A DNA stretch of 64,000 nt from Eubacteriales bacterium (lineage in GTDB: Bacteria; Bacillota; Clostridia; Oscillospirales; CAG-272), in contig JAZODF010000003.1 of the NCBI GenBank assembly GCA_045596865.1, positions 15,525 through 79,524 of the forward strand, in the 5' to 3' direction. This document shows positions 2,527-30,017 of the stretch, in pieces. The stretch's first letter is position 1; each line of letters opens with the position of its first letter. Under the pieces are notes generated by a model. That model worked only from the letters and a program-made list of their open reading frames with translations, did no database searches and was not told the origin of the DNA. Position numbers and translations under genes: made by a program.

Positions 2527-5154
2527 ATGAAAAAGAGAATCATCTGTCTATTGCTTCTCGTGGCGATGTGTGCAAGCTGTGCCGTCGTTTTCACGGGCTG
2601 CAGGGGCAAAAACGGCGGAGATAAGACGAATCCCGACGCGCTCGTTATCATGACCGAGCAGCTCGACGGTCTGTTCAACCCCTTCTTCTCCACCTCCGCT
2701 ACCGACGGCACCATCGTCTCGATGACGCAGATCGGTATGCTCTCCTCCAAGTGCATCTACGACGCTAAGGGCAACGTAACCTCCGTCGAGGTCGCATTTG
2801 GCGATGACGAGGCGGTAGTAACCAAGGACTACCAGGTAACGCAGAATTCCGACGGCGATAACGTATATACCTTCGTTATCAAGAACGGCATCCTCTTCTC
2901 CGACGGTCACCCCCTGACCATCGAGGACGTGCTCTTCAACCTCTACCTCTATCTCGACCCCGTTTACACGGGCTCGGCAACCATCTACTCGACCGCCATC
3001 AAGGGCCTGAACGCGTACAGAAACCAGGACCCCGACGCGACCGAGGAGGATAACGACGACACCACCTCCGAGCAGGCGGCACAGAACGCATCCATGCGTA
3101 TTCTCGAGCTCGTTCAGCTTTACGAGACCGCCGCAGAGCAGAACGACGGCTCCTTCTACATCACCGTTGACGAGATGAAGGCGGCCATCGCAAACCACAC
3201 CCCCTCCTACGACTACATGGCGTCGATCATGACCTTCGACGAGATGGACGCGGACGGTGCCGAGGATAAGGCACGCGCACAGCTGCTTGCCGACTACGAG
3301 CAGGCGCTGAAGCTCTTTAACGAGGAGCTCTACACCGACTTTGAGAGCGCGAAGGACGCATACGTCGACGACGAGCGCTACGAGAAGTTCGAGGAGATCA
3401 AGAACGAGCTGTTCTGCTTCTTCCTTTACGAGGGCTACGTAACCATCGAGTACGAGAAGATCGCAGGCACCGACAAGGACGATAAGTCGAAGATCAAGGC
3501 CCTTCATCCCAACCTCGATATCAGCAAGTACACCACCAAGGACGCGGCGATCAAGCGCGTTTACGACGATATGATCGCAGAGTCGCTCTCCTCCATCCTC
3601 CTCTACTCTGTCAGCTCGTCCAAGCTGCTTAACGATTTCACCACGAAGGCAAAGGACGTCCTCCTCAAGAACCAGAGGGAGGGTGACGAGCTCGTCGTTC
3701 CCTCTATCTCGGGTATTCAGTCGCTCGGCCACAACGAGGCCACCAAGGGCAGCACCGTTACCGTTAACGGTAACGAGTACACCGTCGCATCCAACCACGA
3801 TGCAAACGGCGTGCCCACCGACGGCTACGACGTGTTGCAGATCACCATCGACGGCGTTGACCCCAAGGCACAGTGGAACTTTGCCTTCTCCGTCGCTCCC
3901 CAGCACTACTACGGCGAGGGTGCAAAGACCCCCGTTGACATTGAGAACAACAAGTTCGGCGTTGATTTTGGTGAGTTTGAATTTATGAAGGGCGTCGTTC
4001 AGTCCGTCCGTAACATCATGCTCCCGATGGGTGCGGGTCCCTACAAGGTAACCGACCGCGCTAACAGCGACAGCCCCGCAACCACCGACTTCTACACCTC
4101 GGGTATCGTTTACTTCAAGCGTAACGATAACTTCCACACCGTTGGCGAGAGCCTGAATAACGCGAAGATCGAGAAGGTCCGCTATCAGGTCGTTTCCGCC
4201 GCAAACTCCATCGGCGCGCTTCAGGAGGGCTCGGTGCACTACATCACCCCCCAGCTCACCAAGGAGAACGACGAGAAGCTGAAGAACATGGCCGCAAACG
4301 GCTACAACTCCATCAAGACCGACCAGCTTGGCTACGGTTACATCGGTATCAACGCAAGCCATATCCCCGACATCAATATCCGTAAGGCTATTATGTGCGC
4401 GATGAACACCTCGCTTGCCCTCGACTACTACACCCTCGATTCCGCGAGCCAGATCTACTGGCCGATGTCGAAGGTATCCTGGGCCTATCCCGACGGCTCG
4501 AGCGCGACCGACAACGGCAGGGATTACCCCCAGATCGACGAGCAGTGGAGCGAGTCCATTGCCATCGCAAATATCCAGAAGTATATGAGCCTTGCAGGCG
4601 TTTCCGCAGGTGACAGCGTGCTGTCCATCGAGTTCACCATCGCGGGCTCCAACCTTCAGGACCACCCCACCTACAAGGTATTCCGCGATGCGGCGGCGCT
4701 CCTCAACTCCCTCGGCTGGGATATCACGGTTGAGCCCGATACGCAGGCGTTGACCAAGATCAACACCGGCTCGCTCGCAGTATGGGCGGCGGCGTGGGGC
4801 TCCACCATCGACCCCGATATGTATCAGGTATATCACAAGAACTCCACCGCCACCTCGACCAAGGGCTGGGGCTACGACGAGATCAAGAGAAACGACGAGC
4901 AAAGAAAGATCCTCGACGAGCTCTCCGACCTTATCGACCAGGCGCGCGAGACCAACGATCAGGAGGTCCGCAAGGAGCTTTACGAGCTTGCAATGGGCAA
5001 GGTGCTCGACCTCGCGGTTGAGCTTCCCGTTTACCAGAGAAGCACGCTTTACGCCTACAACGCGAACGTAATCAAGGCAGAGAGCCTTCCCGAGGAGATC
5101 AACCCCTACTCCTCCCCCCTTGACAGAATCTGGGAGATCGAGTTCGCTAACTGA
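2527..5154 (+). CDS. ABC transporter substrate-binding lipoprotein, family 5 (Opp/Dpp type), unusually large (875 aa)
   Basis: Lipobox VFTGCRG. The N-terminal region has an SBP_bac_5-like motif (LDGLFNPFFSTSATDGTIVSMTQIGML). It heads an operon with two permeases and two ATPases. Confidence 0.8.
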   Translation: MKKRIICLLLLVAMCASCAVVFTGCRGKNGGDKTNPDALVIMTEQLDGLFNPFFSTSATDGTIVSMTQIGMLSSKCIYDAKGNVTSVEVAFGDDEAVVTKDYQVTQNSDGDNVYTFVIKNGILFSDGHPLTIEDVLFNLYLYLDPVYTGSATIYSTAIKGLNAYRNQDPDATEEDNDDTTSEQAAQNASMRILELVQLYETAAEQNDGSFYITVDEMKAAIANHTPSYDYMASIMTFDEMDADGAEDKARAQLLADYEQALKLFNEELYTDFESAKDAYVDDERYEKFEEIKNELFCFFLYEGYVTIEYEKIAGTDKDDKSKIKALHPNLDISKYTTKDAAIKRVYDDMIAESLSSILLYSVSSSKLLNDFTTKAKDVLLKNQREGDELVVPSISGIQSLGHNEATKGSTVTVNGNEYTVASNHDANGVPTDGYDVLQITIDGVDPKAQWNFAFSVAPQHYYGEGAKTPVDIENNKFGVDFGEFEFMKGVVQSVRNIMLPMGAGPYKVTDRANSDSPATTDFYTSGIVYFKRNDNFHTVGESLNNAKIEKVRYQVVSAANSIGALQEGSVHYITPQLTKENDEKLKNMAANGYNSIKTDQLGYGYIGINASHIPDINIRKAIMCAMNTSLALDYYTLDSASQIYWPMSKVSWAYPDGSSATDNGRDYPQIDEQWSESIAIANIQKYMSLAGVSAGDSVLSIEFTIAGSNLQDHPTYKVFRDAAALLNSLGWDITVEPDTQALTKINTGSLAVWAAAWGSTIDPDMYQVYHKNSTATSTKGWGYDEIKRNDEQRKILDELSDLIDQARETNDQEVRKELYELAMGKVLDLAVELPVYQRSTLYAYNANVIKAESLPEEINPYSSPLDRIWEIEFAN

Positions 5155-5167
5155 CGAGGTTTGAATA

Positions 5168-6160
5168 ATGCTTAAATACATACTCAAAAGAATTGGGCTT
5201 GCCATCATAATTCTTCTCGGTGTGTCGCTAATCATTTATTTCCTTATCCGCCTTATGCCCGTCGACTTCATTCAGTCGAAGATCGACGCGATGAACCAGG
5301 GGGGAACCGTCGTCCCCGACGACGTCGTGCAGAATATGTATAAGATGTACGGCCTCGGCGACGATTCCTTCCTCGGTATTCTCGAGGGCTATTTCAACTG
5401 GCTGTTACAGCTGCTTCAAGGAAATCTCGGAAATTGCTTCAAGAACGGAACGCCCGTTACCACCGTCATCAAGCAGCACATGGGCGTCTCCTTCGCAATT
5501 TCCTTAATTGCAACCGTTTTTGAATTTATGATCGCGATCCCGCTGGGAATCACGGCGGCAACGCATCAGTATTCCCTGCGCGACTACGTCGTTACCATCC
5601 TCGTTATGATAGGTATTTCACTTCCTTCCTTCTTCTTCGGAAATATGCTGAAGGATCTGTTTGCCTACAAGCTCGGGTGGTTCCCGTCACAGGGTGACAT
5701 TTCGGCGACGGGCTCGGCCACGGGTCTTGCCCTTCTGCCCGAATACTTTATGCACCTGTTCCTCCCCATTCTCACGATAATCATCCTCTCCATCGGCGGA
5801 CGAATGAGAATGACGAGGACGAATATGCTCGAGGTCCTGAACTCGGATTACATCCGTACCGCACGCGCGAAGGGCCTCTCCGAAACCAAGGTCATCTACA
5901 AGCACGCCTTCCGCAACACACTCATCCCCGTCGTAACCAGCCTTGCGGGACTTCTTCCCTCTCTGTTCTCGGGATCCATCATCACCGAGCAGATCTTCGG
6001 CGTTCAGGGTATCGGTAACGTTGCGCTCGACTATATGAACAAGGGTGACATCCCCTTCATCATGGGCTACAACATGTTCCTCGCCGTTCTTTCGGTCATC
6101 GGCGTATTGCTTGCCGACCTTATGTACGTTCTCGTTGACCCGAGAGTCAAGATCGAGTAA
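5168..6160 (+). CDS. ABC transporter permease (OppB/DppB-like)
   Basis: Multi-TM protein with an EAA-loop-like segment (YIRTARAKGLSETKVIYKHAFRN), typical of BPD_transp_1 OppB. Confidence 0.85.
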   Translation: MLKYILKRIGLAIIILLGVSLIIYFLIRLMPVDFIQSKIDAMNQGGTVVPDDVVQNMYKMYGLGDDSFLGILEGYFNWLLQLLQGNLGNCFKNGTPVTTVIKQHMGVSFAISLIATVFEFMIAIPLGITAATHQYSLRDYVVTILVMIGISLPSFFFGNMLKDLFAYKLGWFPSQGDISATGSATGLALLPEYFMHLFLPILTIIILSIGGRMRMTRTNMLEVLNSDYIRTARAKGLSETKVIYKHAFRNTLIPVVTSLAGLLPSLFSGSIITEQIFGVQGIGNVALDYMNKGDIPFIMGYNMFLAVLSVIGVLLADLMYVLVDPRVKIE

Positions 6161-6169
6161 GGAGGCAGT

Positions 6170-7318
6170 ATGGAAGAAAAGAATATTCCCGAAATTTCCC
6201 CTGCCACCGAAGGTACCGAGGGCGTAAATACCACCGAGGCCGTCAGCACCTCCTCGAAGGACACCGAGGCACCGCTTGACAAGAACGTCAAGCTCCTCTC
6301 CCCGACGCAGATGGTGCTTCGCCGCTTCTTCCGCTCGCGTCTTAGTATCATCGGTCTTATTATGATCGTGTCGCTGTTTTTGTTCTCCTTCTTCGGCCCG
6401 CTGTTCTTTGCCGACAGGGGTGAGAAAAACGAGATGGGCGGCATCGTCTACGACCCGAACGACGGCAAGTGGGGCGAGATCGAGCTCGACGAATCGGGTC
6501 AGATCGAATACTCCACCACCGAGTACGAGATAATCGGCGAAAACGGCGAGAAGATCACCGTCCGCCAGACCGTTGAGCGTAAGCTCAAGGACAATTTCCT
6601 CGCACCCCCGTCCCGCGACCACATCCTCGGCACGGATAACGAGGGCTACGACATCTTCGTCCGCCTTATGTACGGTGGGCGTATATCCCTGACCGTCAGC
6701 TTCATCGCCGTTTTCGTTATCACCATTCTCGGCGTCGTGCTCGGCGGTGTTGCGGGCTACTTCGGCGGGGTTATCGACAACGTTATCATGCGTATTTGCG
6801 ATATCCTTATGTGCCTGCCGGGTATTCCGATCCTTCTCATCATCTCGACGCTTCTCGACGCGGCGGGCATCGATGCGAAGTACCGTATCTATTTACTTAT
6901 GATCTATCTGACCCTCTTCTCCTGGACGGGTACCGCCCGCCTCGTAAGAGGACAGATCCTCTCCCTGCGTGAGCAGGAGTACATGGTCGCCGCCGAGGCG
7001 ATGGGCTACTCCACCGCGCGAAAGATATTCAAGCACCTCGTGCCCAACGTAATGCCTCAGCTCATCGTGCAGATGACCCTCTCGCTCGGTAGTATGATCC
7101 TTTACGAGGCGACCCTCTCCTACCTCAATCTCGGAGTCAAGGCGCCCTACGCCGCATGGGGTACTATGATCAACATCATTTCCACCAACACCGACATCCT
7201 TCAGAACCACTTCAACGTCTGGGGACCCGCCGGTATCTGCATCGTTATTGCCGTGCTTGGCTTCAACTTCGTTGGCGACGGCCTGCGCGACGCGCTCGAC
7301 CCCAAGATGAGGAGATAA
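6170..7318 (+). CDS. ABC transporter permease (OppC/DppC-like) with N-terminal/extracytoplasmic extension
   Basis: REQEYMVAAEAMGYSTARKIFKHLVPN is OppC-like, and HILGTDNEGYDIF is a conserved OppC N-motif. About 100 extra residues precede it. Confidence 0.85.
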   Translation: MEEKNIPEISPATEGTEGVNTTEAVSTSSKDTEAPLDKNVKLLSPTQMVLRRFFRSRLSIIGLIMIVSLFLFSFFGPLFFADRGEKNEMGGIVYDPNDGKWGEIELDESGQIEYSTTEYEIIGENGEKITVRQTVERKLKDNFLAPPSRDHILGTDNEGYDIFVRLMYGGRISLTVSFIAVFVITILGVVLGGVAGYFGGVIDNVIMRICDILMCLPGIPILLIISTLLDAAGIDAKYRIYLLMIYLTLFSWTGTARLVRGQILSLREQEYMVAAEAMGYSTARKIFKHLVPNVMPQLIVQMTLSLGSMILYEATLSYLNLGVKAPYAAWGTMINIISTNTDILQNHFNVWGPAGICIVIAVLGFNFVGDGLRDALDPKMRR

Positions 7319-7321
7319 GAT

Positions 7322-8680
7322 ATGAATATTATTGATAAAATCAAATCCCTCCTCGGAAAGGGCGAGGACGGCGAGATCAAGACGGGCGACAAGCCCCGTG
7401 CCTACCTCACGGGTAGGGAGATCCGCGCGATTGCAAAGGCTAATTCCAAGGTGATGATGCGCCTCGAAAAGTACAAGAAGCGCAAGGCGGACGAGTCCGA
7501 ATTCGTCACCGAGATGAAGGACGACAGGAATATCCTCGAGATCGAGGACCTGCACACCTATTTCTTCACCGATCAGGGCGTTGTCAAGGCGGTCAACGGC
7601 GTTTCCTTCAACATTCCGAAGAACGCAACCGTCGGCATCGTCGGCGAGTCGGGCTGTGGCAAGAGCGTCACGAGCATGTCGGTCATGCGCCTGCTCCAGG
7701 GACCGCAGGGCCAGATCTACTCGGGTAGCATCCGCTTCAAGGCGTACGATTACAAGCGCGAGGGCGGCAAGCTCATCCCCGTTTACGAGCTCGGCGAGGA
7801 CGGTCAGCCGATCATGGTTGACGAGTTAAACAAGAAGGGCGAGCCCACGGGCAAAAAGATCCCGAAGCAGCGCCTCGACGAAAAGGGCGCGCCGATGTTC
7901 GAGACCGAGGAAAAGGTCTACGACATTGCGAAAATGCCGCAGAGCGAGATCTACCGCATCCGCGGAAAGCAGATCGCAATGATCTTCCAGGAGCCGATGA
8001 CCTCCTTAAACCCCATTTTCACCATAGGTGAACAGCTCGACGAGGTGACCTTCATCCACACGCCCGGCGCGACCAAGGAGATGGCGAAGGAGCGCTCGAT
8101 GGAGATGCTCAACCTCGTTGGAATTGCCGCGCCCGAGCGCGTTTACAAGGCGTTCCCGCACGAGCTGTCGGGCGGAATGCGACAGAGGGTTATGATCGCG
8201 ATGGCGCTTGCCTGCGATCCCCGACTCATCATCGCGGACGAGCCGACCACCGCGCTCGACGTTACCATTCAGGCGCAGATCCTCGACCTGCTCCGTGACC
8301 TGAAGGACCGTATCGACGGCTCTATTATGCTCATCACCCACGACCTCGGCGTTATTGCGGAGATGGCGGATTTCGTCGTCGTAATGTACGCGGGCCGCGT
8401 TATCGAGATGGGCACGGTCAGGGAGATCTTCCATAACCCGATGCACCCCTACACCATCGGTCTTCAGAAGTCGAAGCCCACGATGGACTCCGACTCCGAC
8501 ACCCTCTTTAACATCCCCGGCAACGTGCCGAACCCCGTAAATATGCCCAACTACTGCTACTTCAAGGAAAGATGCTCGATGTGCACCCCGAAGTGTGGCG
8601 GCGACTACCCCTGCATGGTACAGGTAAGCCCGACGCACTACGTTTCCTGTCACCTTTATGAGGAGGAGAAAAATGGCTGA
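7322..8680 (+). CDS. ABC transporter ATP-binding protein (OppD/DppD-like) with N-terminal extension and internal insertion
   Basis: Walker A GESGCGKS, signature LSGGMRQR, Walker [13 protein letters not shown], and a C-terminal oligopeptide-ATPase Cys-rich tail. Confidence 0.85.
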
Positions 8681-9830
8681 TATTTTGAATAACGAAAATG
8701 CGGCGATCTCCGACGCGGTGAACGAGGAAAACACACCCGTAGCAGAGGTCGGGGCCACCCCCGCGGACGCGCCCGAGTATGACGACGAGGCGATCGCCGC
8801 AAAATACGAGGCACAAAAGCGCGCAAGACGCGACGCCGATATGGATAAGCCCTACGATCCCGAGGCTATCCTCGAGGTGCGCCACCTTCGCAAGTGCTTC
8901 CCGCTGAAGAAGTCGCTGACGGGCAAGGTCCTCTCCGAGCTCGTCGCGGTTGACGACGTGTCCTTCGTACTCAAGCCGGGTGAGACGCTCGGTATCGTTG
9001 GCGAGTCGGGATGCGGAAAGACCACCCTCGGCAGGGCGATCCTCAAGCTGCACAAGCCGACCGACGGCAAGATCATCTTCATGGGTGAGGACATCACCGA
9101 CTATAAGACGAACGAGATGCGCGAGATCCGCAAGAAGATGCAGATCATCTTCCAGGACCCCTACTCCTCCCTGCCGCCCCGTAGCACGGTGGGCGACATC
9201 CTCTCCGAGCCCGTGCTCGTTCACGGAATCGTGCCGAAGAGCGAGGTTAAGGACTATGTCCTTAATCTTATGGAGAAGTGCGGTCTGCGCGACTACTATT
9301 ACGAGAGATACCCGCACGAGTTCTCGGGCGGTCAGCGTCAGCGTATCTGCATCGCACGCGCCCTGTCGGTCAATCCGAGCCTCGTCATCTGTGACGAGCC
9401 CGTTTCCGCGCTCGACGTGTCTATTCAGGCGCAGATCATCAACCTTCTGAAGGAATTACAGAGGGATATGAACCTCACCTACGTGTTCATCTCGCACGAC
9501 CTGTCGGTCGTCAAGTTCATCTCCGACAAGATCGGCGTAATGTACCTCGGCTCGATGGTTGAGTTCGGTAACAAGGCCGACATCTTCTCGAATCCCATCC
9601 ACCCGTATACGAAGGCGCTGTTCTCCGCGATCCCGAATCCGAATCCCGACGCGAAGATGAACCGCATCCCCCTCTCGGGTGATATTCCCTCCCCCGCAAA
9701 TCCGCCGAAGGGCTGTCGCTTCCATACGCGCTGCCCATACGCGAAGGAGATCTGCAAGCACATCCCACCCGAGTACAAGGAGTATGGCGAGGGGCATTTC
9801 GCCGCCTGTCACCTGCTTGACGAGGAGTGA
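8673..9830 (+). CDS. ABC transporter ATP-binding protein (OppF/DppF-like) with ~70-aa acidic N-terminal extension
   Basis: Walker A GESGCGKT, signature FSGGQRQR, Walker B LVICDEPVSALD. I chose ATG 8673, which lies 5 nt after GGAGGAG, over the track start 8658. Confidence 0.85.
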   Translation: MADILNNENAAISDAVNEENTPVAEVGATPADAPEYDDEAIAAKYEAQKRARRDADMDKPYDPEAILEVRHLRKCFPLKKSLTGKVLSELVAVDDVSFVLKPGETLGIVGESGCGKTTLGRAILKLHKPTDGKIIFMGEDITDYKTNEMREIRKKMQIIFQDPYSSLPPRSTVGDILSEPVLVHGIVPKSEVKDYVLNLMEKCGLRDYYYERYPHEFSGGQRQRICIARALSVNPSLVICDEPVSALDVSIQAQIINLLKELQRDMNLTYVFISHDLSVVKFISDKIGVMYLGSMVEFGNKADIFSNPIHPYTKALFSAIPNPNPDAKMNRIPLSGDIPSPANPPKGCRFHTRCPYAKEICKHIPPEYKEYGEGHFAACHLLDEE

Positions 9831-9832
9831 AA

Positions 9833-10069
9833 ATGAGCAAAAAGGGGAAAAAGAAAAAGCAAAAGGTAACCTACATCGACGACGGCAGGACCATCGCCGA
9901 TATGTCGAACGTCGGCGGTCCCCGCTACCACGGTAGCGGCCGCCCCCGCGCCTCCTTTAAGGAGCAGTGGAAAACCTACTGCGGCGCGGTGCGGATGATG
10001 TTCGTACCGATGCTCGTCGTGCTCGGCATCATCACCCTCGCGTTCCTTATTACCTATTTGCTGTTTTAA
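9833..10069 (+). CDS. Small basic membrane protein (78 aa), hypothetical
   Basis: The ATG follows GAGGAG. Lys-rich N-terminus and one C-terminal TM helix (MMFVPMLVVLGIITLAFLITYLLF). It is followed by terminator 10256-10282. Confidence 0.35.
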   Translation: MSKKGKKKKQKVTYIDDGRTIADMSNVGGPRYHGSGRPRASFKEQWKTYCGAVRMMFVPMLVVLGIITLAFLITYLLF

Positions 10070-10294: not shown

Positions 10295-10359
10295 TGTTGT
10301 CCGAGCGTGTTGCCCGAGCATGTTGCCCGAGAGTGTTGCCCGAGAGTGTTGCCCGTGCC
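10295..10359. repeat. 13-bp tandem repeat x5 (TGTTGCCCGAGAG)
   Basis: Units start at 10295, 10308, 10321, 10334 and 10347. They are intergenic. Confidence 0.9.
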
Positions 10360-10550
10360 AAAAACCGCACCCTTTTTCGTAGGGACCGGCGTCCTTCATT
10401 ATTGTAGGGACCGGCGTCCTCGACGGTCCGTGACACAGCGGGATGCAAACAATTGCCATCGCCCGTGCGTGTAAGGCTCGGTTGCCCCTTGTTTTGCCTC
10501 GATTTTATTGCCTTGCTCGGCTCGGACCGTCAAGTTGCAATGCAACTTTC

Positions 10551-10606
10551 GGACGCACGGTCCCTACAAAAAATAGAAAAACACGGCTCATGTGAGCCGT
10601 GTTTTT
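10551..10606 (+). repeat. 56-bp direct repeat, left copy (contains terminator hairpin)
   Basis: GGACGCACGGTCCCTACAAAAAATAGAAAAACACGGCTCATGTGAGCCGTGTTTTT. It matches 12949-13004 at 54/56 positions. Confidence 0.9.
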
Positions 10607-10609
10607 CAA

Positions 10610-11599
10610 TTAAATATCCACGCCGGATCTTTTCATAATGTACTCGACCATATTTTCGCTTTCAACATATCTGCTGAATTTCGGCATAAGGTCGGGAAGG
10701 TTTTTCCTCGTCCAATTTGCTCTTTCACGCTCTGCGATCTTATCAAAATACATATCGCTTATTTTGTACGCAAGAACTCCGATTGCAAAAACGATTAGCA
10801 TCCACCAATCTTTTATCATCGAGAACTCAAATCCCTTGATTCCGAGGATATCGCTTTCAACAACTCTTGCCGCCATAAATATTTCTGCATTTTTTGATAG
10901 GAAAAGACCAAGGAAAAGCGCCTCGACTATTCCGCAAATCGTCATAAATATGGCTGTATTCTGCCTTTTCGCGCGTTGGATAGGATTTTTTGCATACGAA
11001 GCCGCAGAAATAGTCCATTGAAGTCCGCCAAGCTCCTCAGACGCCGCCTCAACCGACATGGCGTCAAAGTCCATTTTTAAAGAATTAGAGATTACATTTT
11101 CGTACTTAACGCCTTTTCGCCCGCACCACTTTGCCAACAGGATATATTTCAAATGCTCGCCAAGCGGAGAATATGCCGCAAATAGAGCATAAAAAATAGC
11201 GGCGAAGACAATTAACGTTTTGACGTTCTTCATCGTCGAAGACATCGTCAGAATGTTATCCCAAGTCAATAACAGAATTACGGCAATACCAAGCAGGACA
11301 ACCGCTGCGGAAATAAACAAAATCCATATCCAGGGCTTAAAAAGATAGGTGTAAAACGGCTCGCTTACCTGCCATTTTTTCATTACCTCGCCTGCGCTCG
11401 ATATTTCTTCACCCTCAATATGCTTTGCACTCTTGCTGACGGATACAAATTCGTAACCACAGCTCGGACACACCACCGGGTCATTCATATAAATATTATT
11501 ACATTCGGGACAAACAGTAATTGATACACCGCAATGCACGCACCGCTTTGCGGTGTCGGAAATCTTTTCCCCACACTCGGGGCAGTTAATAATAGCCAT
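10610..11599 (-). CDS. Double zinc-ribbon membrane protein, hypothetical
   Basis: The N-terminus CPECGEKISDTAKRCVHCG...CPECNN...CPSCG gives two CxxC..CxxC ribbons. About 4 predicted TM helices follow. The region is AT-richer than its flanks. Confidence 0.55.
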   Translation of the reverse strand: MAIINCPECGEKISDTAKRCVHCGVSITVCPECNNIYMNDPVVCPSCGYEFVSVSKSAKHIEGEEISSAGEVMKKWQVSEPFYTYLFKPWIWILFISAAVVLLGIAVILLLTWDNILTMSSTMKNVKTLIVFAAIFYALFAAYSPLGEHLKYILLAKWCGRKGVKYENVISNSLKMDFDAMSVEAASEELGGLQWTISAASYAKNPIQRAKRQNTAIFMTICGIVEALFLGLFLSKNAEIFMAARVVESDILGIKGFEFSMIKDWWMLIVFAIGVLAYKISDMYFDKIAERERANWTRKNLPDLMPKFSRYVESENMVEYIMKRSGVDI

Positions 11600-11610
11600 T
11601 TTTTTACTCC

Positions 11611-12195
11611 TTAAATATCATCAATATCTATTTGACTATATAAGCGCTTTGCCTTTTCGGACGGAAGGTTTGGTATGTACTTAATTCCCTTCTCTTCCAA
11701 TAGCCATTTTTCAAATTTCTTATTGTATCGCACTATATTGAGCTTATTATCGTTGCTGATTCTGGTATATATCACCATTACAATAGTACCCACCCAAACC
11801 AACGCAACTGCGACCATTGCTATTTGCGCCAGAATTGCCCAAAACGTTCCGCTTGCATAATTATCCACCCTCTGCCCGCATAGTACGGAAACAGCCGCGC
11901 AAAACCAAGCGGTGTAATGCATATTATAGTACTTCTTTATTTCTCCCTTTTTACGCCTGTATGAGAGCGCCCACGGGTCGGTGTTAACAAACGTTTCCTC
12001 GAGCATCCTTTGCTCACTAGCGGGCAGTTGATGGAAAAGCGGGCGTTTATCATCCTCGGGTGCCTCGATATGCGTTGATGTGACAGACTCCTCTGCAACC
12101 TCAACGTCTTCATTTACGGGATGACCGCAATGAATGCACTTTTCCGTTTTGTCGCTGATATTCTTGCCACAGTTCTTACAGGTAATAAGTGCCAT
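11611..12195 (-). CDS. Zinc-ribbon membrane protein, hypothetical
   Basis: CKNCGKNISDKTEKCIHCG ribbon followed by 2 TM helices. It is in the same operon as 10610..11599. Confidence 0.55.
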   Translation of the reverse strand: MALITCKNCGKNISDKTEKCIHCGHPVNEDVEVAEESVTSTHIEAPEDDKRPLFHQLPASEQRMLEETFVNTDPWALSYRRKKGEIKKYYNMHYTAWFCAAVSVLCGQRVDNYASGTFWAILAQIAMVAVALVWVGTIVMVIYTRISNDNKLNIVRYNKKFEKWLLEEKGIKYIPNLPSEKAKRLYSQIDIDDI

Positions 12196-12389
12196 TAAAC
12201 CATCCCTCCTTCAAGCAGTCCTTTAATCGTGTGAACAACAGAGCCGGATATTTCCGCCGTTGTTTCACCAAAAAAAGTCATCAAAGCGCAAAGAACGCAC
12301 ACTATCGTACCGCCCCACATTGCAATCCGCATTGCTTTTAGTATAGGGCTTGCAGATAAGTTAAGATCTTCCCTCATTTTTACCTCCAT
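12195..12389 (-). CDS. Small single-TM protein (64 aa), hypothetical
   Basis: TM helix WGGTIVCVLCALMTFF. Its stop overlaps the next start (TAATG), implying translational coupling. It is the first gene after promoter 12408-12436. Confidence 0.4.
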   Translation of the reverse strand: MEVKMREDLNLSASPILKAMRIAMWGGTIVCVLCALMTFFGETTAEISGSVVHTIKGLLEGGMV

Positions 12390-12407
12390 AATATTTAATG
12401 CGGCAAT

Positions 12408-12436
12408 ATTGTATCATATATAGCCCACTTTGTCAA
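12408..12436 (-). promoter_or_regulatory. Sigma-A-type promoter of the zinc-ribbon operon
   Basis: On the minus strand: TTGACA-17 nt-(TGa)TACAAT, reading gtaTTGACAaagtgggctatatatgaTACAATattg. Confidence 0.6.
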
Positions 12437-12493
12437 TACTTTTCGGGCTATAATTAGACCATAAGGCCTAAAAAACACAATCGGAGGACATAT

Positions 12494-12736
12494 ATGGACA
12501 CTTATATTGCTACCAAAAACAGGCTGTTAGAGCTTCTTGAAATGAGGAAGATGTCGATACACAAGCTGGCTATGGAATCGGCGGTGCCGCCGTCGAGCAT
12601 CAAAAATATTCTCTACGGAAAAAGCACGAATCCCGGCGTTGTAACCATTAAAAAGCTGTGCGACGGGCTTGGCATCACTATCGTCGAGTTTTTCAACACG
12701 GAAACCTTTTTGAATTTGGAGCAGGAGATAAAATAA
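12494..12736 (+). CDS. XRE-family helix-turn-helix transcriptional regulator
   Basis: HTH_3-like sequence (RKMSIHKLAMESAVPPSSIKNILYGKSTNPGVVTIKKLCDGLGITIVEFF). It is divergent from the zinc-ribbon operon. Confidence 0.75.
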   Translation: MDTYIATKNRLLELLEMRKMSIHKLAMESAVPPSSIKNILYGKSTNPGVVTIKKLCDGLGITIVEFFNTETFLNLEQEIK

Positions 12737-12948
12737 ATCCTACCCTGCCGCGGTGCAAATCTCCAAGCCTTCCCTAGTGAGGGAATGGGTGAGAGAGCCG
12801 CAAGCGGCTCGGATGAGTTGTCTAGCCTCCCAAACGTTCCTACGCAAGCCGCGGCGGAGCAATTCTTTAACTCTGTACTCACAATGCTCTCGCAGGCTCC
12901 TTCAGTCACGGCTACGCCGTGCCAGCTCCCTCTCGGAGGGAGCCTTTG

Positions 12949-13004
12949 GGACGCACGGTCCCTACAAAAAATAGAAAAACACGGCTCGTTTGAGCCGTGT
13001 TTTT
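12949..13004 (+). repeat. 56-bp direct repeat, right copy
   Basis: Same sequence as the left copy, with the loop changed to CGTTTG. Confidence 0.9.
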
Positions 13005-13065
13005 TGCGTAATGCAGTATTTCTCGCGCCGCGAGGGTTGTAAATACATAAATATTCCGACAATCC

Positions 13066-13149
13066 TGCCGACGGGGCGTCAAACATTGATAAACGCACCG
13101 ATGATAATGCCGACGGGGCGTCAAATATAAATAAACACCCCAATGATCG
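13066..13149. repeat. 42-bp tandem duplication spanning the 3' end of gene 13121..13516
   Basis: TGCCGACGGGGCGTCAAA... occurs at 13066 and 13108. On the minus strand the outer copy reads GIIIGAFINV* and the genuine C-terminus reads GTIIGVFIYI*. Confidence 0.8.
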
Positions 13150-13516
13150 TGCCGAGGACGGCGGAGAGGGTGTTTGCCGCGATGCTGACGGGGAGGGTGC
13201 GGCGATATGGCTCGCGCGTGAGGATGCGGTACATCCACGCCTCGAGGAGGATGACGCCCACCTCGGCAAGAAGGAAGACGGCGAGGGTTGCCCCGACCCA
13301 CATTCGGGGTAGGAGCAGCTCTTTTACACCCTTGTAGAGGGCGGGGAGAATGAGGTTGACGATAGGATTCGTCAACAGGTTAAGGATGACCGACGGACGA
13401 CGAAAGCCACGCCAACGCGTAACAAGGGTGAGGAGCGTGCCCTCGATAAGCACGGTGATTCCGGCCATAAATAAAAGGTAGATAAGAACGACGATCCCGA
13501 AGAGAACAAACTTCAT
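13121..13516 (-). CDS. Integral membrane protein, hypothetical (131 aa)
   Basis: About 4 hydrophobic helices. Its start overlaps the stop of the upstream small ORF (ATGA). Confidence 0.5.
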   Translation of the reverse strand: MKFVLFGIVVLIYLLFMAGITVLIEGTLLTLVTRWRGFRRPSVILNLLTNPIVNLILPALYKGVKELLLPRMWVGATLAVFLLAEVGVILLEAWMYRILTREPYRRTLPVSIAANTLSAVLGTIIGVFIYI

Positions 13517-13683
13517 TTGCTCCTCCTCCCGAGGACGAAGGCAAAGACCGCGACAACCGCAACGAGCATCACGACGCCGACGACGAGCATCGCGATAAGT
13601 GCGCCATTCGACATGCCGCCAAGGGAATCGGAAACGTTGGGAAGGATGGGCGGGGGTGCGACGTCAAGAATGTGATTAAGCAT
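13513..13683 (-). CDS. Small hydrophobic peptide (56 aa), not in the ORF track (below its cutoff)
   Basis: My own translation is MLNHILDVAPPPILPNVSDSLGGMSNGALIAMLVVGVVMLVAVVAVFAFVLGRRSK. Its ATG overlaps the 3' end of the MFS gene, and its TGA overlaps the ATG of the next gene. Confidence 0.35.
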   Translation of the reverse strand: MLNHILDVAPPPILPNVSDSLGGMSNGALIAMLVVGVVMLVAVVAVFAFVLGRRSK

Positions 13684-14716
13684 TTTTATTCTCCTTTTTT
13701 ATTGAGATGAGTATTCCGCCAAGTGCCGCGAGGCAAAGGACGGTGAGTGTAATAATCTGTGACAGGAGGGTGCGCGGAAGGACGAAGAAGGACGGCAGTA
13801 CACCGAGGAACAGGCCGACCGTGGTTATTCCAAAGGAATAACCAACCCGCCCGCGGAAGCGCGAAGCGAGGATGCCGACGGTAATGGGCATCGTCATTGA
13901 AAAGAGCGCGATACCGATGATCGATAGGGGCATGACCCGTCCGCCAAAGGCGAGAAACGGGATGGAAACGAGCAGGCTGACAATGGCGCAGGTGCGGAAT
14001 CCGAATTTATCGGCAACGGGGCCGCCGAGCATCTTGCCAAGACCCATAAAGACGAACAGAAGCACCGAGTCGAGGGTGGTATCCATCCACTCGGTCGGGA
14101 TGGCGTAGGACACGAAGGAGCGCGCCGCGACCGCAAGGAGCAATATCAGGAGCATGGGCACGACGGGCAACGAGGTATTGACGTGGGTAAACGGAAGGCC
14201 GTCGTCCGTGAGGTCGGAGCGAAGGTAGAGAAAGAGGCAGACCCCGAGCGAGAGTAGCATAAGGCCGACGGGCAGGAGCGCGACGGTTCCCCACCCCGCC
14301 GAGCCGAGCAGGCGACCCGCAATCACGCCGAAGGAGCCGCCGCCGACGAATATCGCGACGGGTGTGACCCTGCCCCCTGCGCCATGCATGGTATGTAGGG
14401 CGCCGTCGACGTGCAGAAGGCAATTGCCGATGCAGAGAAGAAATAGCGCGGGGTAATCAAACGGCAGGGCAAGCCCCGAGAGCATGAGCACGCAGCCGAT
14501 GACCCCGTAGGGTATGCGGCGGTAGCGGTCGGCAAGCTCGCCAATGAGGATCTGCGGCAGGAAGGCAAGCGCGTTATAGAGCATGGCGCACGCCCACCAA
14601 GACGGTGTGCCCGCCATACGGGAATATAGGAAATAGAAGCAGGCGACCTCCACCGAGAGGTGGACGAAGGAGTATAGGACGCCGCGCAAGAGTGGTCGGG
14701 CAGAAATTATCATCAC
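13676..14716 (-). CDS. MFS-type transporter (346 aa, short)
   Basis: About 10 TM segments. MFS motif-A-like GELADRYRR occurs in the first half and GGPVADKFGFR in the second half. Confidence 0.6.
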   Translation of the reverse strand: MMIISARPLLRGVLYSFVHLSVEVACFYFLYSRMAGTPSWWACAMLYNALAFLPQILIGELADRYRRIPYGVIGCVLMLSGLALPFDYPALFLLCIGNCLLHVDGALHTMHGAGGRVTPVAIFVGGGSFGVIAGRLLGSAGWGTVALLPVGLMLLSLGVCLFLYLRSDLTDDGLPFTHVNTSLPVVPMLLILLLAVAARSFVSYAIPTEWMDTTLDSVLLFVFMGLGKMLGGPVADKFGFRTCAIVSLLVSIPFLAFGGRVMPLSIIGIALFSMTMPITVGILASRFRGRVGYSFGITTVGLFLGVLPSFFVLPRTLLSQIITLTVLCLAALGGILISIKKENKNA

Positions 14717-28057: not shown

Positions 28058-28921
28058 TTACTCCTTAATCGGAATCCAGATTTCACTCCTGTAATCCTCT
28101 GCCATCATATCGCCCGAGGAATAATACTCGATCTCGGGGAGCATCGCGTGCTTATAGCCCGAGGTAGGTAGCCATTCAGAATAAATGCGCTTCCAGATAT
28201 CCTGCATGGGATTAGGCAGGGGGCGCATCGAGCCAATCACCTCAAACACCGCCCATGACGACTCGGGAATAGTCATTTCTTCGAGGTTGTCGGGACACGG
28301 CCCGTCAGACATACAGCCGATCCAATACTCGAAGCCTCCGTCATACATCTCGCCGCACATTCCGATGATGCCGTCATTGTTACTGAGGGCGGTGATCTGC
28401 TCTCTTTGCTCATCGGTGACCGAATCCCACATTTTCGGAATCTCGGTCAATTGGCTGTCATTCTCGGTGGAAAACCACCTCTTAAATCCGATGATGTGCA
28501 TCTCGTCCTTTTTCAAAATCCTGTAATTCATCGCGTTTACCCCTTTTATTGTTAATACAAAGGTGATTCTGCCGTAGGATTTCAGAATACATCCGCCGCG
28601 CTTGACCGCCGAGGGGGTAATTCCGTGCATCTGCTTAAACGCCCTCGTGAAGGAATCGGGTGACGTGTAACCGTATTTCAGCGCAACGTCGAGGACGGAC
28701 ACACCGCCCTTTTGAAGCTCGTACGCGGCGAGCGAAAGCCGACGCCTCCGCACGTATTCGACGATCGAGATGCCCGTCAGGGCATAGAACGTCCTCTGCA
28801 AATCAACCTCAAGGCATCCCGTCGCGTCCGCGATGGTCGGCATACTCAATTCATCGAGCAGATGCTCCTCGATATATTCAATCGTCGTATTCATACATTC
28901 CAAAACGTTCATGGCACTCAC
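28058..28921 (-). CDS. AraC-family transcriptional regulator with GyrI-like effector-binding domain
   Basis: N-terminal HTH_18 (ALKYGYTSPDSFTRAFKQMHGITPS), then a SOUL/GyrI-like C-terminus ending in ...EIWIPIK. Confidence 0.8.
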   Translation of the reverse strand: MSAMNVLECMNTTIEYIEEHLLDELSMPTIADATGCLEVDLQRTFYALTGISIVEYVRRRRLSLAAYELQKGGVSVLDVALKYGYTSPDSFTRAFKQMHGITPSAVKRGGCILKSYGRITFVLTIKGVNAMNYRILKKDEMHIIGFKRWFSTENDSQLTEIPKMWDSVTDEQREQITALSNNDGIIGMCGEMYDGGFEYWIGCMSDGPCPDNLEEMTIPESSWAVFEVIGSMRPLPNPMQDIWKRIYSEWLPTSGYKHAMLPEIEYYSSGDMMAEDYRSEIWIPIKE

Positions 28922-29007
28922 CTCTGTTCGTTTCTATTGTAGCATAGGGGGGATCGGATTTCTCGACCTTTTCCTACGAAAAAAGTCGGATTTTTCTCTA
29001 CGGTTAT

Positions 29008-29036
29008 AGTTTAGCATATCGACGTGCAAAAGTAAA
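29008..29036 (-). promoter_or_regulatory. Promoter-like element upstream of the AraC gene (module copy 2)
   Basis: On the minus strand: TTTACT-17 nt-TAAACT. A second extended -10 (TGcTACAAT) lies closer to the ATG. Confidence 0.4.
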
Positions 29037-29077
29037 GGGGCGATTTGCCGAAGCAAATCGCCCTGTTTACGAGCCTT
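29026..29077. repeat. 52-bp terminator/promoter module, copy 2
   Basis: See copy 1. A degenerate third copy lies at 30061-30106. Confidence 0.9.
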
Positions 29078-29222
29078 CCCCAAGTGGGGGAAGGTGGATT
29101 TTGCGTAGCAAAAGACGGATGAGGATGCCGCGCTCCCCTGCCCTCTCCGTCGGGTTACAAAGCAGCTCTCAGACACACTCTCCCACCGGGAGAGGACGAG
29201 GTGTTCACAGCCGTTTGACACC

Positions 29223-30017
29223 CTAAAACCAATAATCATGCATTTCCGAAATTATCTTATCATCTATCTCTTCATCTATCCCGTCGGGGATTACAGCATC
29301 AATATTGCACTTGGGACACAATGCGGTGTTTCCGTTGTCTATGTATCTATCAACCTCATGACTTCCAAAGGCACTCCTACAATAAAAACAATAGCACTTG
29401 TCTGATCTTATCACCAAATCGCTGTTGTGAGAGGAATAAGCATGCAACCTTTTAAGTTGAGATTCTTTTTCATGCGAATAGGATCGATTGATCTTTCGCT
29501 TTCCCTTTCCTCGATATCCCCTTAAAACCCCAAAAACAGTGCATACGGCACATATACCAAACATGATTGCCACCTTTGCAAGATCGGCTGTTGTCCTATC
29601 GGTAGCAAATAAATAAAACAGGGGGAAGAATATTCCACAAAAAGCAAGGGGAATCAATATATTACGAACTAAAACTCTCGTATTATTTGTTTTTCGGCCC
29701 GACTTGTAGTTTTCCTTTATTTCGTCGAGAGACAACACCTTTTTCTTACACTTTTTCTGGATTATTTTAATTATGCACTGCTCGTCAAAAGAAATTCTCG
29801 CTCCGCAGCAAGGGCACGAAAAGCGATACTCATATATGTCATAATCATGCCTTGGAAACGTTCCGTATTCATGATACTGATAATAATCCAAATCGTCTTT
29901 TGTCACAATGCGGTGTGTTTTTTCCTTATTTAGCTTTGTCCCGCATTTAGAGCAATAGTGATTTTTAAAGACCATACCAAAAGGAATGGAAATATATTTA
30001 CCCTTCAAACGAATCAC
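29223..30017 (-). CDS. Zinc-ribbon membrane protein, hypothetical (264 aa)
   Basis: CSKCG...CPCCG N-terminal ribbon, 2 TM helices, then a C-terminal CYCFYC...CPKC ribbon. The gene is strongly AT-rich. Confidence 0.5.
   Translation of the reverse strand: MIRLKGKYISIPFGMVFKNHYCSKCGTKLNKEKTHRIVTKDDLDYYQYHEYGTFPRHDYDIYEYRFSCPCCGARISFDEQCIIKIIQKKCKKKVLSLDEIKENYKSGRKTNNTRVLVRNILIPLAFCGIFFPLFYLFATDRTTADLAKVAIMFGICAVCTVFGVLRGYRGKGKRKINRSYSHEKESQLKRLHAYSSHNSDLVIRSDKCYCFYCRSAFGSHEVDRYIDNGNTALCPKCNIDAVIPDGIDEEIDDKIISEMHDYWF

Follow-up and report, generated by a model that had tools for sequence, protein, structure and literature searches.

The CI/Cro-like switches of phages and the CapH-controlled CBASS (cyclic oligonucleotide-based antiphage signalling systems) have in common a small helix-turn-helix (HTH) regulator of the XRE family, divergent from the operon that it presumably represses, and a palindromic operator embedded in a strong promoter. 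A similar layout is found in a cassette of four genes at positions 10607–12737 of the DNA studied here, a stretch of 64,000 nucleotides (the window) of contig JAZODF010000003.1 of a Eubacteriales bacterium (assembly GCA_045596865.1). In this cassette an HTH_3/19/26 regulator is divergent from an operon of three membrane-protein genes, named g1, g2 and g3, and a candidate operator is located in the operon promoter. However, the cassette encodes no CapP-like protease, S24 peptidase domain or anti-repressor, its cargo is unrelated to known defence effectors or phage genes, and the HTH matches of its regulator are generic.

Zinc-ribbon membrane proteins are also represented among described families. 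The Pfam families DZR and Zn_Ribbon_1, TcaA of Staphylococcus aureus and YdjG of Bacillus subtilis share with the cassette proteins one or more CxxC-N-CxxC ribbons right at the N terminus, with a linker and transmembrane (TM) helices after them. YdjG is a zinc-ribbon membrane protein encoded in the pspA operon (PMC9239133). With respect to TcaA, the cassette proteins gave weak matches to the NCBIfam model teico_TcaA, covering the ribbon and the first TM helix only, and they are not members of this family because the score was 23.8 against a cut-off of 550. In addition, TcaA has a large extracellular domain, whereas the extramembrane parts of the cassette proteins are almost wholly cytosolic.

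The third point of comparison is given by accessory loci that are hypervariable between conserved flanks, defence hotspots and variable cassette loci among them. As in these loci, the cargo of the cassette has a foreign composition and is of more recent date than its flanks, and a single site is found in empty, type-1 and type-2 states, with a conserved arm that could serve as recombination substrate. Unlike in them, the alternative cargoes are not unrelated systems but belong, as divergent versions, to a single three-gene family; besides, there is no integrase, attC or integron-like machinery, and the surrounding genes are housekeeping. The comparisons presented below indicate that the cassette is very probably an accessory, horizontally exchanged element, polymorphic within its species at an intergenic site rich in terminators and in sequences like REP (repetitive extragenic palindromic) elements. 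As a small repressor-controlled accessory islet it belongs to a familiar kind of feature; the protein families that it encodes are uncharacterised and have no models.

The cassette and its alternative states at one site

The genes g1 (64 aa, 12195–12389), g2 (194 aa, 11611–12195) and g3 (329 aa, 10610–11599) are encoded on the minus strand, and the XRE gene (80 aa, 12494–12736) on the plus strand, all four between the two copies of a direct repeat. A first-pass annotation of the window had recognized four genes of these lengths, with zinc-ribbon and XRE HTH domains and with a TAATG overlap coupling the translation of g1 and g2. All of them are in the list of open reading frames (ORFs), Pfam agrees with the domain calls, and the overlap is read directly in the sequence. 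The drop in G+C content estimated there by hand count was also reproduced by computation, the cassette having a value of 0.427 against 0.561 and 0.569 in the 5-kb flanks. At third codon positions (GC3) the values of g1, g2 and g3 were 0.40–0.48, compared with 0.70 ± 0.10 in the 44 other ORFs of the window (z = −2.2 to −3.0); that of the XRE gene was 0.62.

The same cassette is present in the same place in L001, L201 and L211, which are about 98% identical to the window. Through exact-protein look-ups of the flanking 56-aa gene an empty site was found in L202, whose right flank is 96.2–96.7% identical to that of the window. In this contig the left-flank-specific sequence corresponding to window positions 10521–10545, over which both are identical, is followed by one copy of the repeat unit and by the right flank from 13005 onward, without any cassette. 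A search for such an empty site with a single repeat copy had been proposed at first pass, and L202 is the answer to it. The join is unlikely to be chimeric, since the k of the assembly (141) exceeds the length of the repeat (61 nt) and the unit copy carries private variants. The left-side contigs L212–L218 were also tried as a bridge across the empty site and discarded, as all of them end in REP-like junk.

A third state was found at the same site in L219 (with L220), whose right flank is 97.4% identical to the window. Its XRE gene, control region and first approximately 20 nt of g1 have 94.6% nucleotide identity to those of the window, whereas the protein identity of the cargo is 25% for g1, 39% for g2 and 39% for g3. 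To judge from these assemblies, the species holds at least three states of the locus: empty, window type, and the same arm with a 25–39% identical cargo. In their flanks, the empty strain is about 96.3% identical to the others, and these are 97.2–97.8% identical among themselves. Because the empty allele is carried by the outgroup strain, one gain and one loss (the latter by recombination between the repeats) are equally parsimonious.

The border between the regulatory arm and the cargo was also evident in other comparisons. Between the window and L001, the cargo had a synonymous divergence of 0.030, lower than that of the flanks (0.076; p = 9e-4) and of the XRE gene (0.157; p = 7e-4). Between the window and L003, a cassette from a different host and a different site, a 35-nt block covering both promoter cores is identical, the identity collapses a few codons into g1, and the cargo is only 27–46% identical. 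These two patterns, together with the regulator groups described below, point to a recombination breakpoint at the arm/cargo border. Moreover, the synonymous divergence of the cargo, below that of the flanks, indicates that the cargo spread later than the surrounding DNA diverged. The three cargo genes are about equally distant in every cassette pair (14–46%). In g3, 0 nonsynonymous and 7 synonymous changes separate the window from L001 (P = 1.8e-5), which argues that the cargo is functional and that g3 is under purifying selection; the 7 nonsynonymous and 2 synonymous changes of g2 are too few to interpret. Taken as a whole, these comparisons portray the cassette as a conserved repressor/promoter arm joined to a swappable and selectively maintained cargo of three membrane proteins.

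Relatives of the cassette are found in other Clostridia. A word-indexed search of 5.8 billion clusters gave about 14 full-length relatives of g3. With a profile of its membrane domain, 1.84 billion representatives yielded 187 clusters (50% identity); almost all have 290–370 aa and a domain start at residue 65–90, and their architecture is uniform. Where the sequence suffices, gene order is constant, with a divergent small XRE gene, g1 (56–171 aa), g2 (about 200 aa) and g3 (about 330 aa); in L221 no g1 gene was called. Co-occurrence with XRE genes was another of the checks suggested at first pass. A divergent XRE gene accompanies 13 of the 17 cassette loci, the others being truncated contigs, and also the family member L146, whereas none of 79 viral loci with zinc-ribbon/TM proteins has one; in this comparison it is specific to the family.

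The flanks of the cassette in these other hosts vary (AzlCD/RluD, TauE, SpoVA/YunB, FtsX, DUF1836, AP endonuclease), and in every host examined the cassette is AT-richer than they are. Across the window and the other hosts, its neighbours include an opp ABC transporter, an amino-acid permease, AzlCD, RluD, SpoVA, FtsX and similar genes. The composition and the patchy distribution indicate that the cassette was originally foreign. The horizontally acquired module postulated by the first-pass annotation is thus upheld by the empty site in L202, by the AT-richness in all genomes examined and by the differing chromosomal contexts. A scan of the GTDB representatives for further empty sites with the flanking 346-aa protein was set aside, its best match having 50% identity. 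None of 54 distant relatives has a cassette beside the homologue of this 346-aa flank gene; these loci are uninformative as empty sites because the opp synteny is not kept.

Two variants of the module were observed in these genomes. At 1187–2574 of L146, a divergent XRE gene lies 66 nt upstream of a gene whose 370-aa product is similar to g3; g1 and g2 do not exist as separate genes, and the module may here be fused or reduced. Immediately upstream of the L006 cassette (4800–6509), a divergent gene encoding a 70-aa XRE protein faces those of two zinc-ribbon/TM proteins of 107 and 119 aa, in a module that also contains a 184-aa protein with a weak DUF4491 match. Since this second, smaller module adjoins the L006 cassette, cassettes of this general design can be tandem.

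Regulator, promoter and membrane proteins

The 80-aa protein is an XRE-family HTH regulator, with Pfam matches above the curated thresholds to HTH_19 (33.0 bits, cut-off 30.2), HTH_26 (32.8 bits, cut-off 22) and HTH_3 (30.2 bits, cut-off 23). The promoter of the g1-g2-g3 operon (minus strand, 12436–12408; TTGACA-17-TGaTACAAT), already read as such in the first-pass annotation, matches the sigma-70 consensus at 11 of 12 positions, has an extended −10 and lies within the block that is identical between the window and L003. The same annotation had noted a palindrome, CAATATTG, in the control region. This sequence is indeed present at 12404–12411. However, it was rejected as operator, because it is not kept in L003, whose control region is the closest relative and has TTATATTG there. 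The motif conserved instead is TATAGCC(C)-N18-20-(G)GGCTATA. In the window it corresponds to the inverted repeat TATAGCCC-N18-GGGCTATA (12419–12452, no strand), the candidate XRE operator, which brackets the −35 of the operon and overlaps the TATAAT (12449–12454) upstream of the XRE gene. Its arms are conserved in the window, L001, L219 and L003, and its spacer varies.

The XRE proteins fall into tight groups, one with the window, L001, L219 and L003 (80–99% identity; L001 and L219 are 98–99% and L003 82% identical to the window at the amino acid level), another with L006 and L222 (78%) and a third with L007 and L009 (80%), the identity between groups being about 20%. Counting L221, there are four regulator groups; in each, the promoter is of the TTGAC[A/T]-17-TA[T/C]AAT type and contains a palindrome peculiar to the group. 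In the group of the window (group A) this is the motif given above, around the −35; in L006 and L222 (group B) it is ATTATACCA-TTT-TGGTATAAT, over the spacer and the −10; in L007 and L009 (group C) it is TACTCAA-AAA-TTGAGTA, running into the −10; and in L221 it is AACACAA-AA-TTGTGTT, between the −35 and the −10. As the palindrome co-varies with the regulator type while its position is kept, this pattern is comparative evidence for repression of the operon by XRE. On this evidence the XRE protein probably represses the g1-g2-g3 operon, the palindrome being its predicted operator.

Regarding the cargo, which consists of three inner-membrane proteins, g3 matches Pfam DZR (PF12773) with 29.9 bits against a threshold of 27.3, and so do 38 of 39 diverse members of its family. 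Its cysteines C6, C9, C20, C23, C30, C33, C44 and C47 are invariant in 16 sequences. The AlphaFold2 (AF2) model of g3 (pLDDT 86, pTM 0.68) contains two ribbons (residues 1–50), a disordered tether (53–63) and helices of 24–46 residues with four TM segments; the helices have long extensions in the cytosol, and the outward-facing parts are short loops only. The AF2 model of g2, which also has a Pfam zinc ribbon, gave a pLDDT of 73 and consists of one ribbon, a disordered acidic tether and one long helix-TM-TM hairpin; its C-terminal tail is conserved (Y.KKFQKWL..EKNI.Y.P). Since the hidden Markov model (HMM) of g2 matches g3 twice, at about residues 1–150 and 200–290, g2 and g3 are paralogues, and g3 has an internal duplication of the hairpin unit. 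The g1 protein has an N-terminal single-pass anchor; the C-terminal ectodomain of about 100 aa found in other cassettes, whose g1 has 149–171 aa, is missing here and in L009, and gave no Pfam match in those cassettes. We lean towards a single complex of g2 and g3, with or without g1.

With 39 diverse members tested, the g3 membrane domain remained without any Pfam or NCBIfam model. The Foldseek search of the cassette proteins, which had been advised at first pass, gave nothing significant for g3 against PDB and the viral models of BFVD, or for g2 against PDB (best E 0.1–0.3, TM < 0.3). TolQ/PomA-like and ClyA/AhlC-like fold matches were rejected as noise, and so was RsgI, the sole PDB sequence match of the membrane-domain profile (E = 0.7). 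The g3 membrane domain is new and lies outside existing family models.

A likeness in outline to the 5:2 stators (TolQ/ExbB/MotA/PomA, and ZorAB of Zorya) was nevertheless considered, given by the polytopic g3 with its long cytosolic helices and by the single-pass g1 partner. The C-terminal ectodomain of the stator partner has a counterpart in the g1 of other cassettes but is missing from that of the window. Both TolQ and PomA were among the top Foldseek matches, at non-significant values (best TolQ E = 0.32, TM-scores 0.19–0.27), and the cassette proteins gave no MotA_ExbB or ExbD Pfam match. A stator-type identity of the cassette is not supported, with no Pfam match, E ≥ 0.3 and TM-scores of 0.2–0.3.

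The direct repeat and the surrounding DNA

The two copies of the direct repeat (10551–10606 and 12949–13004) are identical at 54 of 56 positions, as the first-pass annotation had indicated, and the repeat extends to 61 nt (10546–10606 and 12944–13004, both on the plus strand) with 95% identity. The initial 39 nt have exactly two occurrences in the window, while shuffled sequences gave an expectation of 0. Folding confirmed that the distal half is a terminator hairpin, strong and bidirectional, with A- and T-tracts (−16 kcal/mol, z = −8.2). Each copy is composed of a REP-like end (10551–10567 on the left and 12949–12965 on the right), an A-rich linker and the terminator, here called T (10577–10606 and 12975–13004).

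The left T copy, of about 30 nt and without assigned strand (AAAAACACGGCTC-N4-GAGCCGTGTTTTT), terminates g3. The right copy corresponds to the terminator that the host has after its 131-aa gene, and all alleles have it, the empty one included. Among all DNA fetched, T is confined to this locus, with one copy in the empty allele and one in L219, where g3 ends in a different terminator and the second repeat copy is missing. In the sister strains L001 and L201 only T, of about 30–34 nt, is found on both sides of the cassette, and the XRE stop codon runs straight into it. In the window, an insertion of 231 bp (12738–12968, no strand), REP-like and rich in hairpins, separates the XRE stop from T; it is missing in L001, L201 and L219, and its last 25 nt are the first half of the right repeat copy. 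At the cassettes of other hosts there are no bracketing repeats longer than 16 nt.

The GTAG-tagged REP elements are defined as imperfect palindromes of 20–40 bp with an unpaired GTAG at one end, and most of them follow genes, in the DNA between ORFs that converge or run in one direction, frequently with opposite orientations (PMC3733652). What remains of the repeat beside the terminator, namely CTTTSGGACGCACGGTCCCTAC and the A-rich linker, represents one end of a short palindromic element, GTAGGGACCG(T)GCGTCC..., which folds with TTGTAG unpaired followed by a 6+2-bp stem (−9.9 kcal/mol, z = −3.1). The first half of the repeat has, in consequence, the structure by which GTAG-tagged REP elements are defined. 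The element has four copies in the window, all at the cassette locus and none elsewhere in the 64 kb, and is arranged as inverted doublets, at 10403–10567 in the window (GTAGGGACCGGCGTCC...GGACGCACGGTCCCTAC, no strand, with an extra head copy at 10378–10394) and at 6494–6718 in L219. The right end of the window doublet is the first half of the left repeat copy. That the left flank has two GTAGGGACCGGCGTCC copies inverted relative to the GGACGCACGGTCCCTAC of the repeat had been seen at first pass, and both are present. The motif is also found in two other genomes (L021 and L006) and in L202, L213, L218 and L219.

This doublet resembles the REP doublets known as REPIN and the bacterial interspersed mosaic elements (BIME) in its GC-rich imperfect palindrome, its unpaired GTAG head and its close inverted units, located between convergent genes and after coding regions; however, the described families are mostly proteobacterial, and here the motif occurs at one locus only within 64 kb. 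A bidirectional terminator and REP-type elements are to be expected at this site because the flanking host genes are convergent.

From these alignments the 56-bp repeat is best explained as a composite by-product, formed by a duplicated host terminator T and by identical REP-like element ends beside each copy. The first-pass annotation had proposed an insertion with duplication of a terminator-containing target; the duplication of the terminator stands, and the whole 56 bp as one duplicated target does not, since L001 and L201 duplicate T only. Nor is the repeat duplication a general signature of insertion, because L219 has no second copy and the cassettes of other hosts have no bracketing repeats; as far as the alleles compared here indicate, the duplication of the terminator is specific to the window-type allele. 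The repeat can mediate deletion, and it may be a record of the origin of this allele.

The left intergenic DNA is itself variable. Between 10070 and 10576, the length, the orientation of the REP-like elements and the number of 13-bp repeats differ among strains that are about 97–98% identical (L001, L213, L214, L218, L202 and L219 compared with the window). The apparent debris measures 439 bp in the window and 845 bp in L001. The 13-bp tandem repeat reported in it at first pass was recovered at 10295–10355 (no strand; 4.7 copies of TGTTGCCCGAGAG, Tandem Repeats Finder score 94), and its copy number varies among strains (L001, L213 and L214 compared). As many metagenome contigs break in this left intergenic DNA, the assemblies of this species are systematically fragmented at the cassette locus. 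Rfam and tRNA searches around the cassette gave no match.

Other features of the neighbourhood were noted. Directly after the oppF-like gene, a small gene (9827–10069) encodes a product of 78–80 aa with a lysine-rich N terminus and one TM helix, 100% identical in several strains and without family match. To the right of the cassette (13121–14716) are the genes of the 346-aa and 131-aa membrane proteins, with the 56-aa gene between them; none has a Pfam family, and the 346-aa/131-aa pair is kept in about 20 of 54 distant metagenome-assembled genomes of Clostridia and Bacilli (L011–L061). At 13047–13155, about two copies of a 42-bp unit (TGCCGACGGGGCGTCAAA core, 83% identical) extend over the 3' end of the 131-aa membrane gene and the adjacent downstream DNA; this repeat is also found in the empty-site strain L202. 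Finally, a second low-GC patch (G+C content 0.42–0.51, with one ORF of GC3 0.40) is located at 28058–30017. It encodes an AraC/GyrI-like (Cass2) regulator (28058–28921) and has ORFs of 101 and 264 aa without Pfam match, and it may be another acquired islet.

Possible roles of the cassette

For the cassette as a whole, we tentatively propose an XRE-gated membrane complex acting in conflict, of the exclusion or abortive-infection type. An XRE dimer on the palindrome embedded in the promoter would hold the strong promoter off until some cue lifts repression; g1, g2 and g3 would then assemble as a hetero-oligomeric membrane complex. The conserved zinc-ribbon heads would recognize a protein or nucleic acid ligand in the cytosol, and the fast-evolving helical bodies would have the membrane as their target, either preventing entry or making the membrane permeable or depolarised. 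A conflict with phages or mobile elements is favoured because of the tight repression, the foreign composition, the presence/absence pattern with its deep allelic types, and the conserved heads on fast-evolving bodies, and it is a possibility that we put somewhat below even chances. The first-pass annotation had thought of an abortive-infection, exclusion or toxin-type module, and the allelic hypervariability would suit a conflict role. Abortive infection through membrane damage, specifically, is rather doubtful.

Several results weigh against this proposal. At E ≤ 1, the PADLOC-DB v2 models gave no match to the three membrane proteins, which also lack homology to characterised effectors. In the contexts examined, neither defence islands nor defence genes were found beside the cassette, the neighbours being housekeeping. 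A search by tblastn of 50,697 phage and 72,556 plasmid records gave no full-length homologues, as the zinc ribbon alone matches, and no associated integrase or transposase was found, nor tRNA or phage structural genes nearby, in about 10 contexts. The XRE protein has no sensor domain and no partner protease, and the 18-nt spacer of the group-A palindrome is unusually long for an XRE dimer. Membrane helices evolve fast, so part of the divergence of the cargo could reflect weak constraint instead of diversifying selection. In addition, the empty-site junction is witnessed by one metagenome contig, L202, which ends 160 bp further left. The check for a placement in defence islands or prophages, suggested at first pass, had a negative outcome in the contexts examined, with housekeeping neighbours and no phage genes or integrase nearby. 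The match of XRE to PADLOC capH (E = 2.3e-5) corresponds to generic HTH similarity, and no description of a defence system with XRE and zinc-ribbon membrane proteins was found in the literature.

Different origins were considered for the cassette. Were the 56-bp repeat a true target-site duplication or an att-type site, the cassette would itself be a mobile element, and both the 61 nt that bracket it at 95% identity and the empty allele with exactly one copy in the expected left and right contexts would be accounted for. It is very unlikely, however, given that the sister strains duplicate only the terminator of about 30–34 nt, that the other half of the repeat is a REP-like end found elsewhere and in other genomes, that neither L219 nor the cassettes of other hosts have the second copy or bracketing repeats, respectively, and that no recombinase is encoded in or adjoining the cassette, while a deletion between repeats gives the same picture. 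A remnant of a prophage or integrative element, with XRE as a CI-like repressor and the membrane genes as superinfection-exclusion or moron genes, would explain the divergent layout, similar to that of phage immunity switches, the match of XRE to PHROG repressor families (phrog_3, E = 5e-9) and the abundance of N-terminal zinc-ribbon/TM proteins in phage contigs. Nevertheless, the HMM of the g3 membrane domain matched in 0 of 80 viral loci, full-length g2 is confined to cassette loci, phage and plasmid records match the ribbon alone, integrase, tRNA and structural genes are absent from the surroundings in about 10 contexts, and the same four genes recur as a clean unit and not as variable debris, all of which makes this origin improbable. 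The cassette does not look like a prophage, nor like a transposon, insertion sequence or integron, the latter because no recombinase was found and the bracketing repeats accompany only the window-type allele.

Other functions can also be envisaged for the same genes. A selfish or lysis-type module, in which a membrane toxin or holin-like cargo would kill the cell once repression by XRE, its transcriptional antidote, is lost, would fit the strong promoter with a dedicated repressor in every member, the compact and self-contained organization with no further genes, and the small membrane proteins with long amphipathic helices. We consider it improbable all the same: XRE is divergent, whereas type II toxin–antitoxin pairs are co-transcribed; Pfam and PHROG searches gave no match to a known toxin or holin family; the existence of the empty allele means that loss is tolerated; and a cargo that swaps while XRE stays misfits a tightly co-adapted toxin–antidote pair. 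With a divergent, not co-transcribed XRE gene and no toxin family match, the cassette does not look like a type II toxin–antitoxin system. A comparably small chance is given to an envelope-signalling or stress module without any conflict role, whose zinc-ribbon proteins would work as sensors or as anti-repressors, retaining XRE or some other factor of the cytosol at the membrane, in the manner of anti-sigma factors or of the YdjG/YdjH partners of PspA. The highly conserved zinc-ribbon heads on flexible tethers facing the cytosol, the transcription factor that is always paired with them and the precedent of YdjG in the pspA operon (PMC9239133) agree with such a module, but no homology to Psp, Lia or anti-sigma components was found, and presence/absence, deep allelic replacement, low G+C content and patchiness would be unusual for a housekeeping stress pathway.

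With respect to phages, several large viral contigs (82–162 kb; L069–L072, L075 and L177, at about 8001–9735) contain two adjacent ORFs of about 270–300 aa with an N-terminal zinc ribbon and TM helices. These match the g2 profile up to residues 168–189 approximately, with a score due mostly to the ribbon, and have neither an XRE partner nor the g3 membrane domain.

Whatever its role, the cassette comes from poorly studied, uncultured gut Clostridia, and it offers a worked case of an apparent target-site duplication that is built from a duplicated terminator and REP-type elements. The empty, type-1 and type-2 alleles are also a possible strain marker. In its broadest form, the proposed conflict role would imply a so far unrecognised family of conflict systems of gut Clostridia, repressor-gated inner-membrane complexes serving as effectors or for exclusion and having a new fold, in which near-invariant heads sense an invader molecule and divergent bodies are exchanged behind a conserved arm at a REP-rich hotspot under balancing or diversifying selection; this we regard as rather unlikely. 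If the conflict role is true, the zinc-ribbon head joined to a duplicated helix-TM-TM body would represent a fold not yet known among effectors or sensors, without counterpart in Pfam, NCBIfam, PADLOC or PDB, and the locus would be a clean natural case of within-species cargo swapping behind a conserved repressor/promoter arm.

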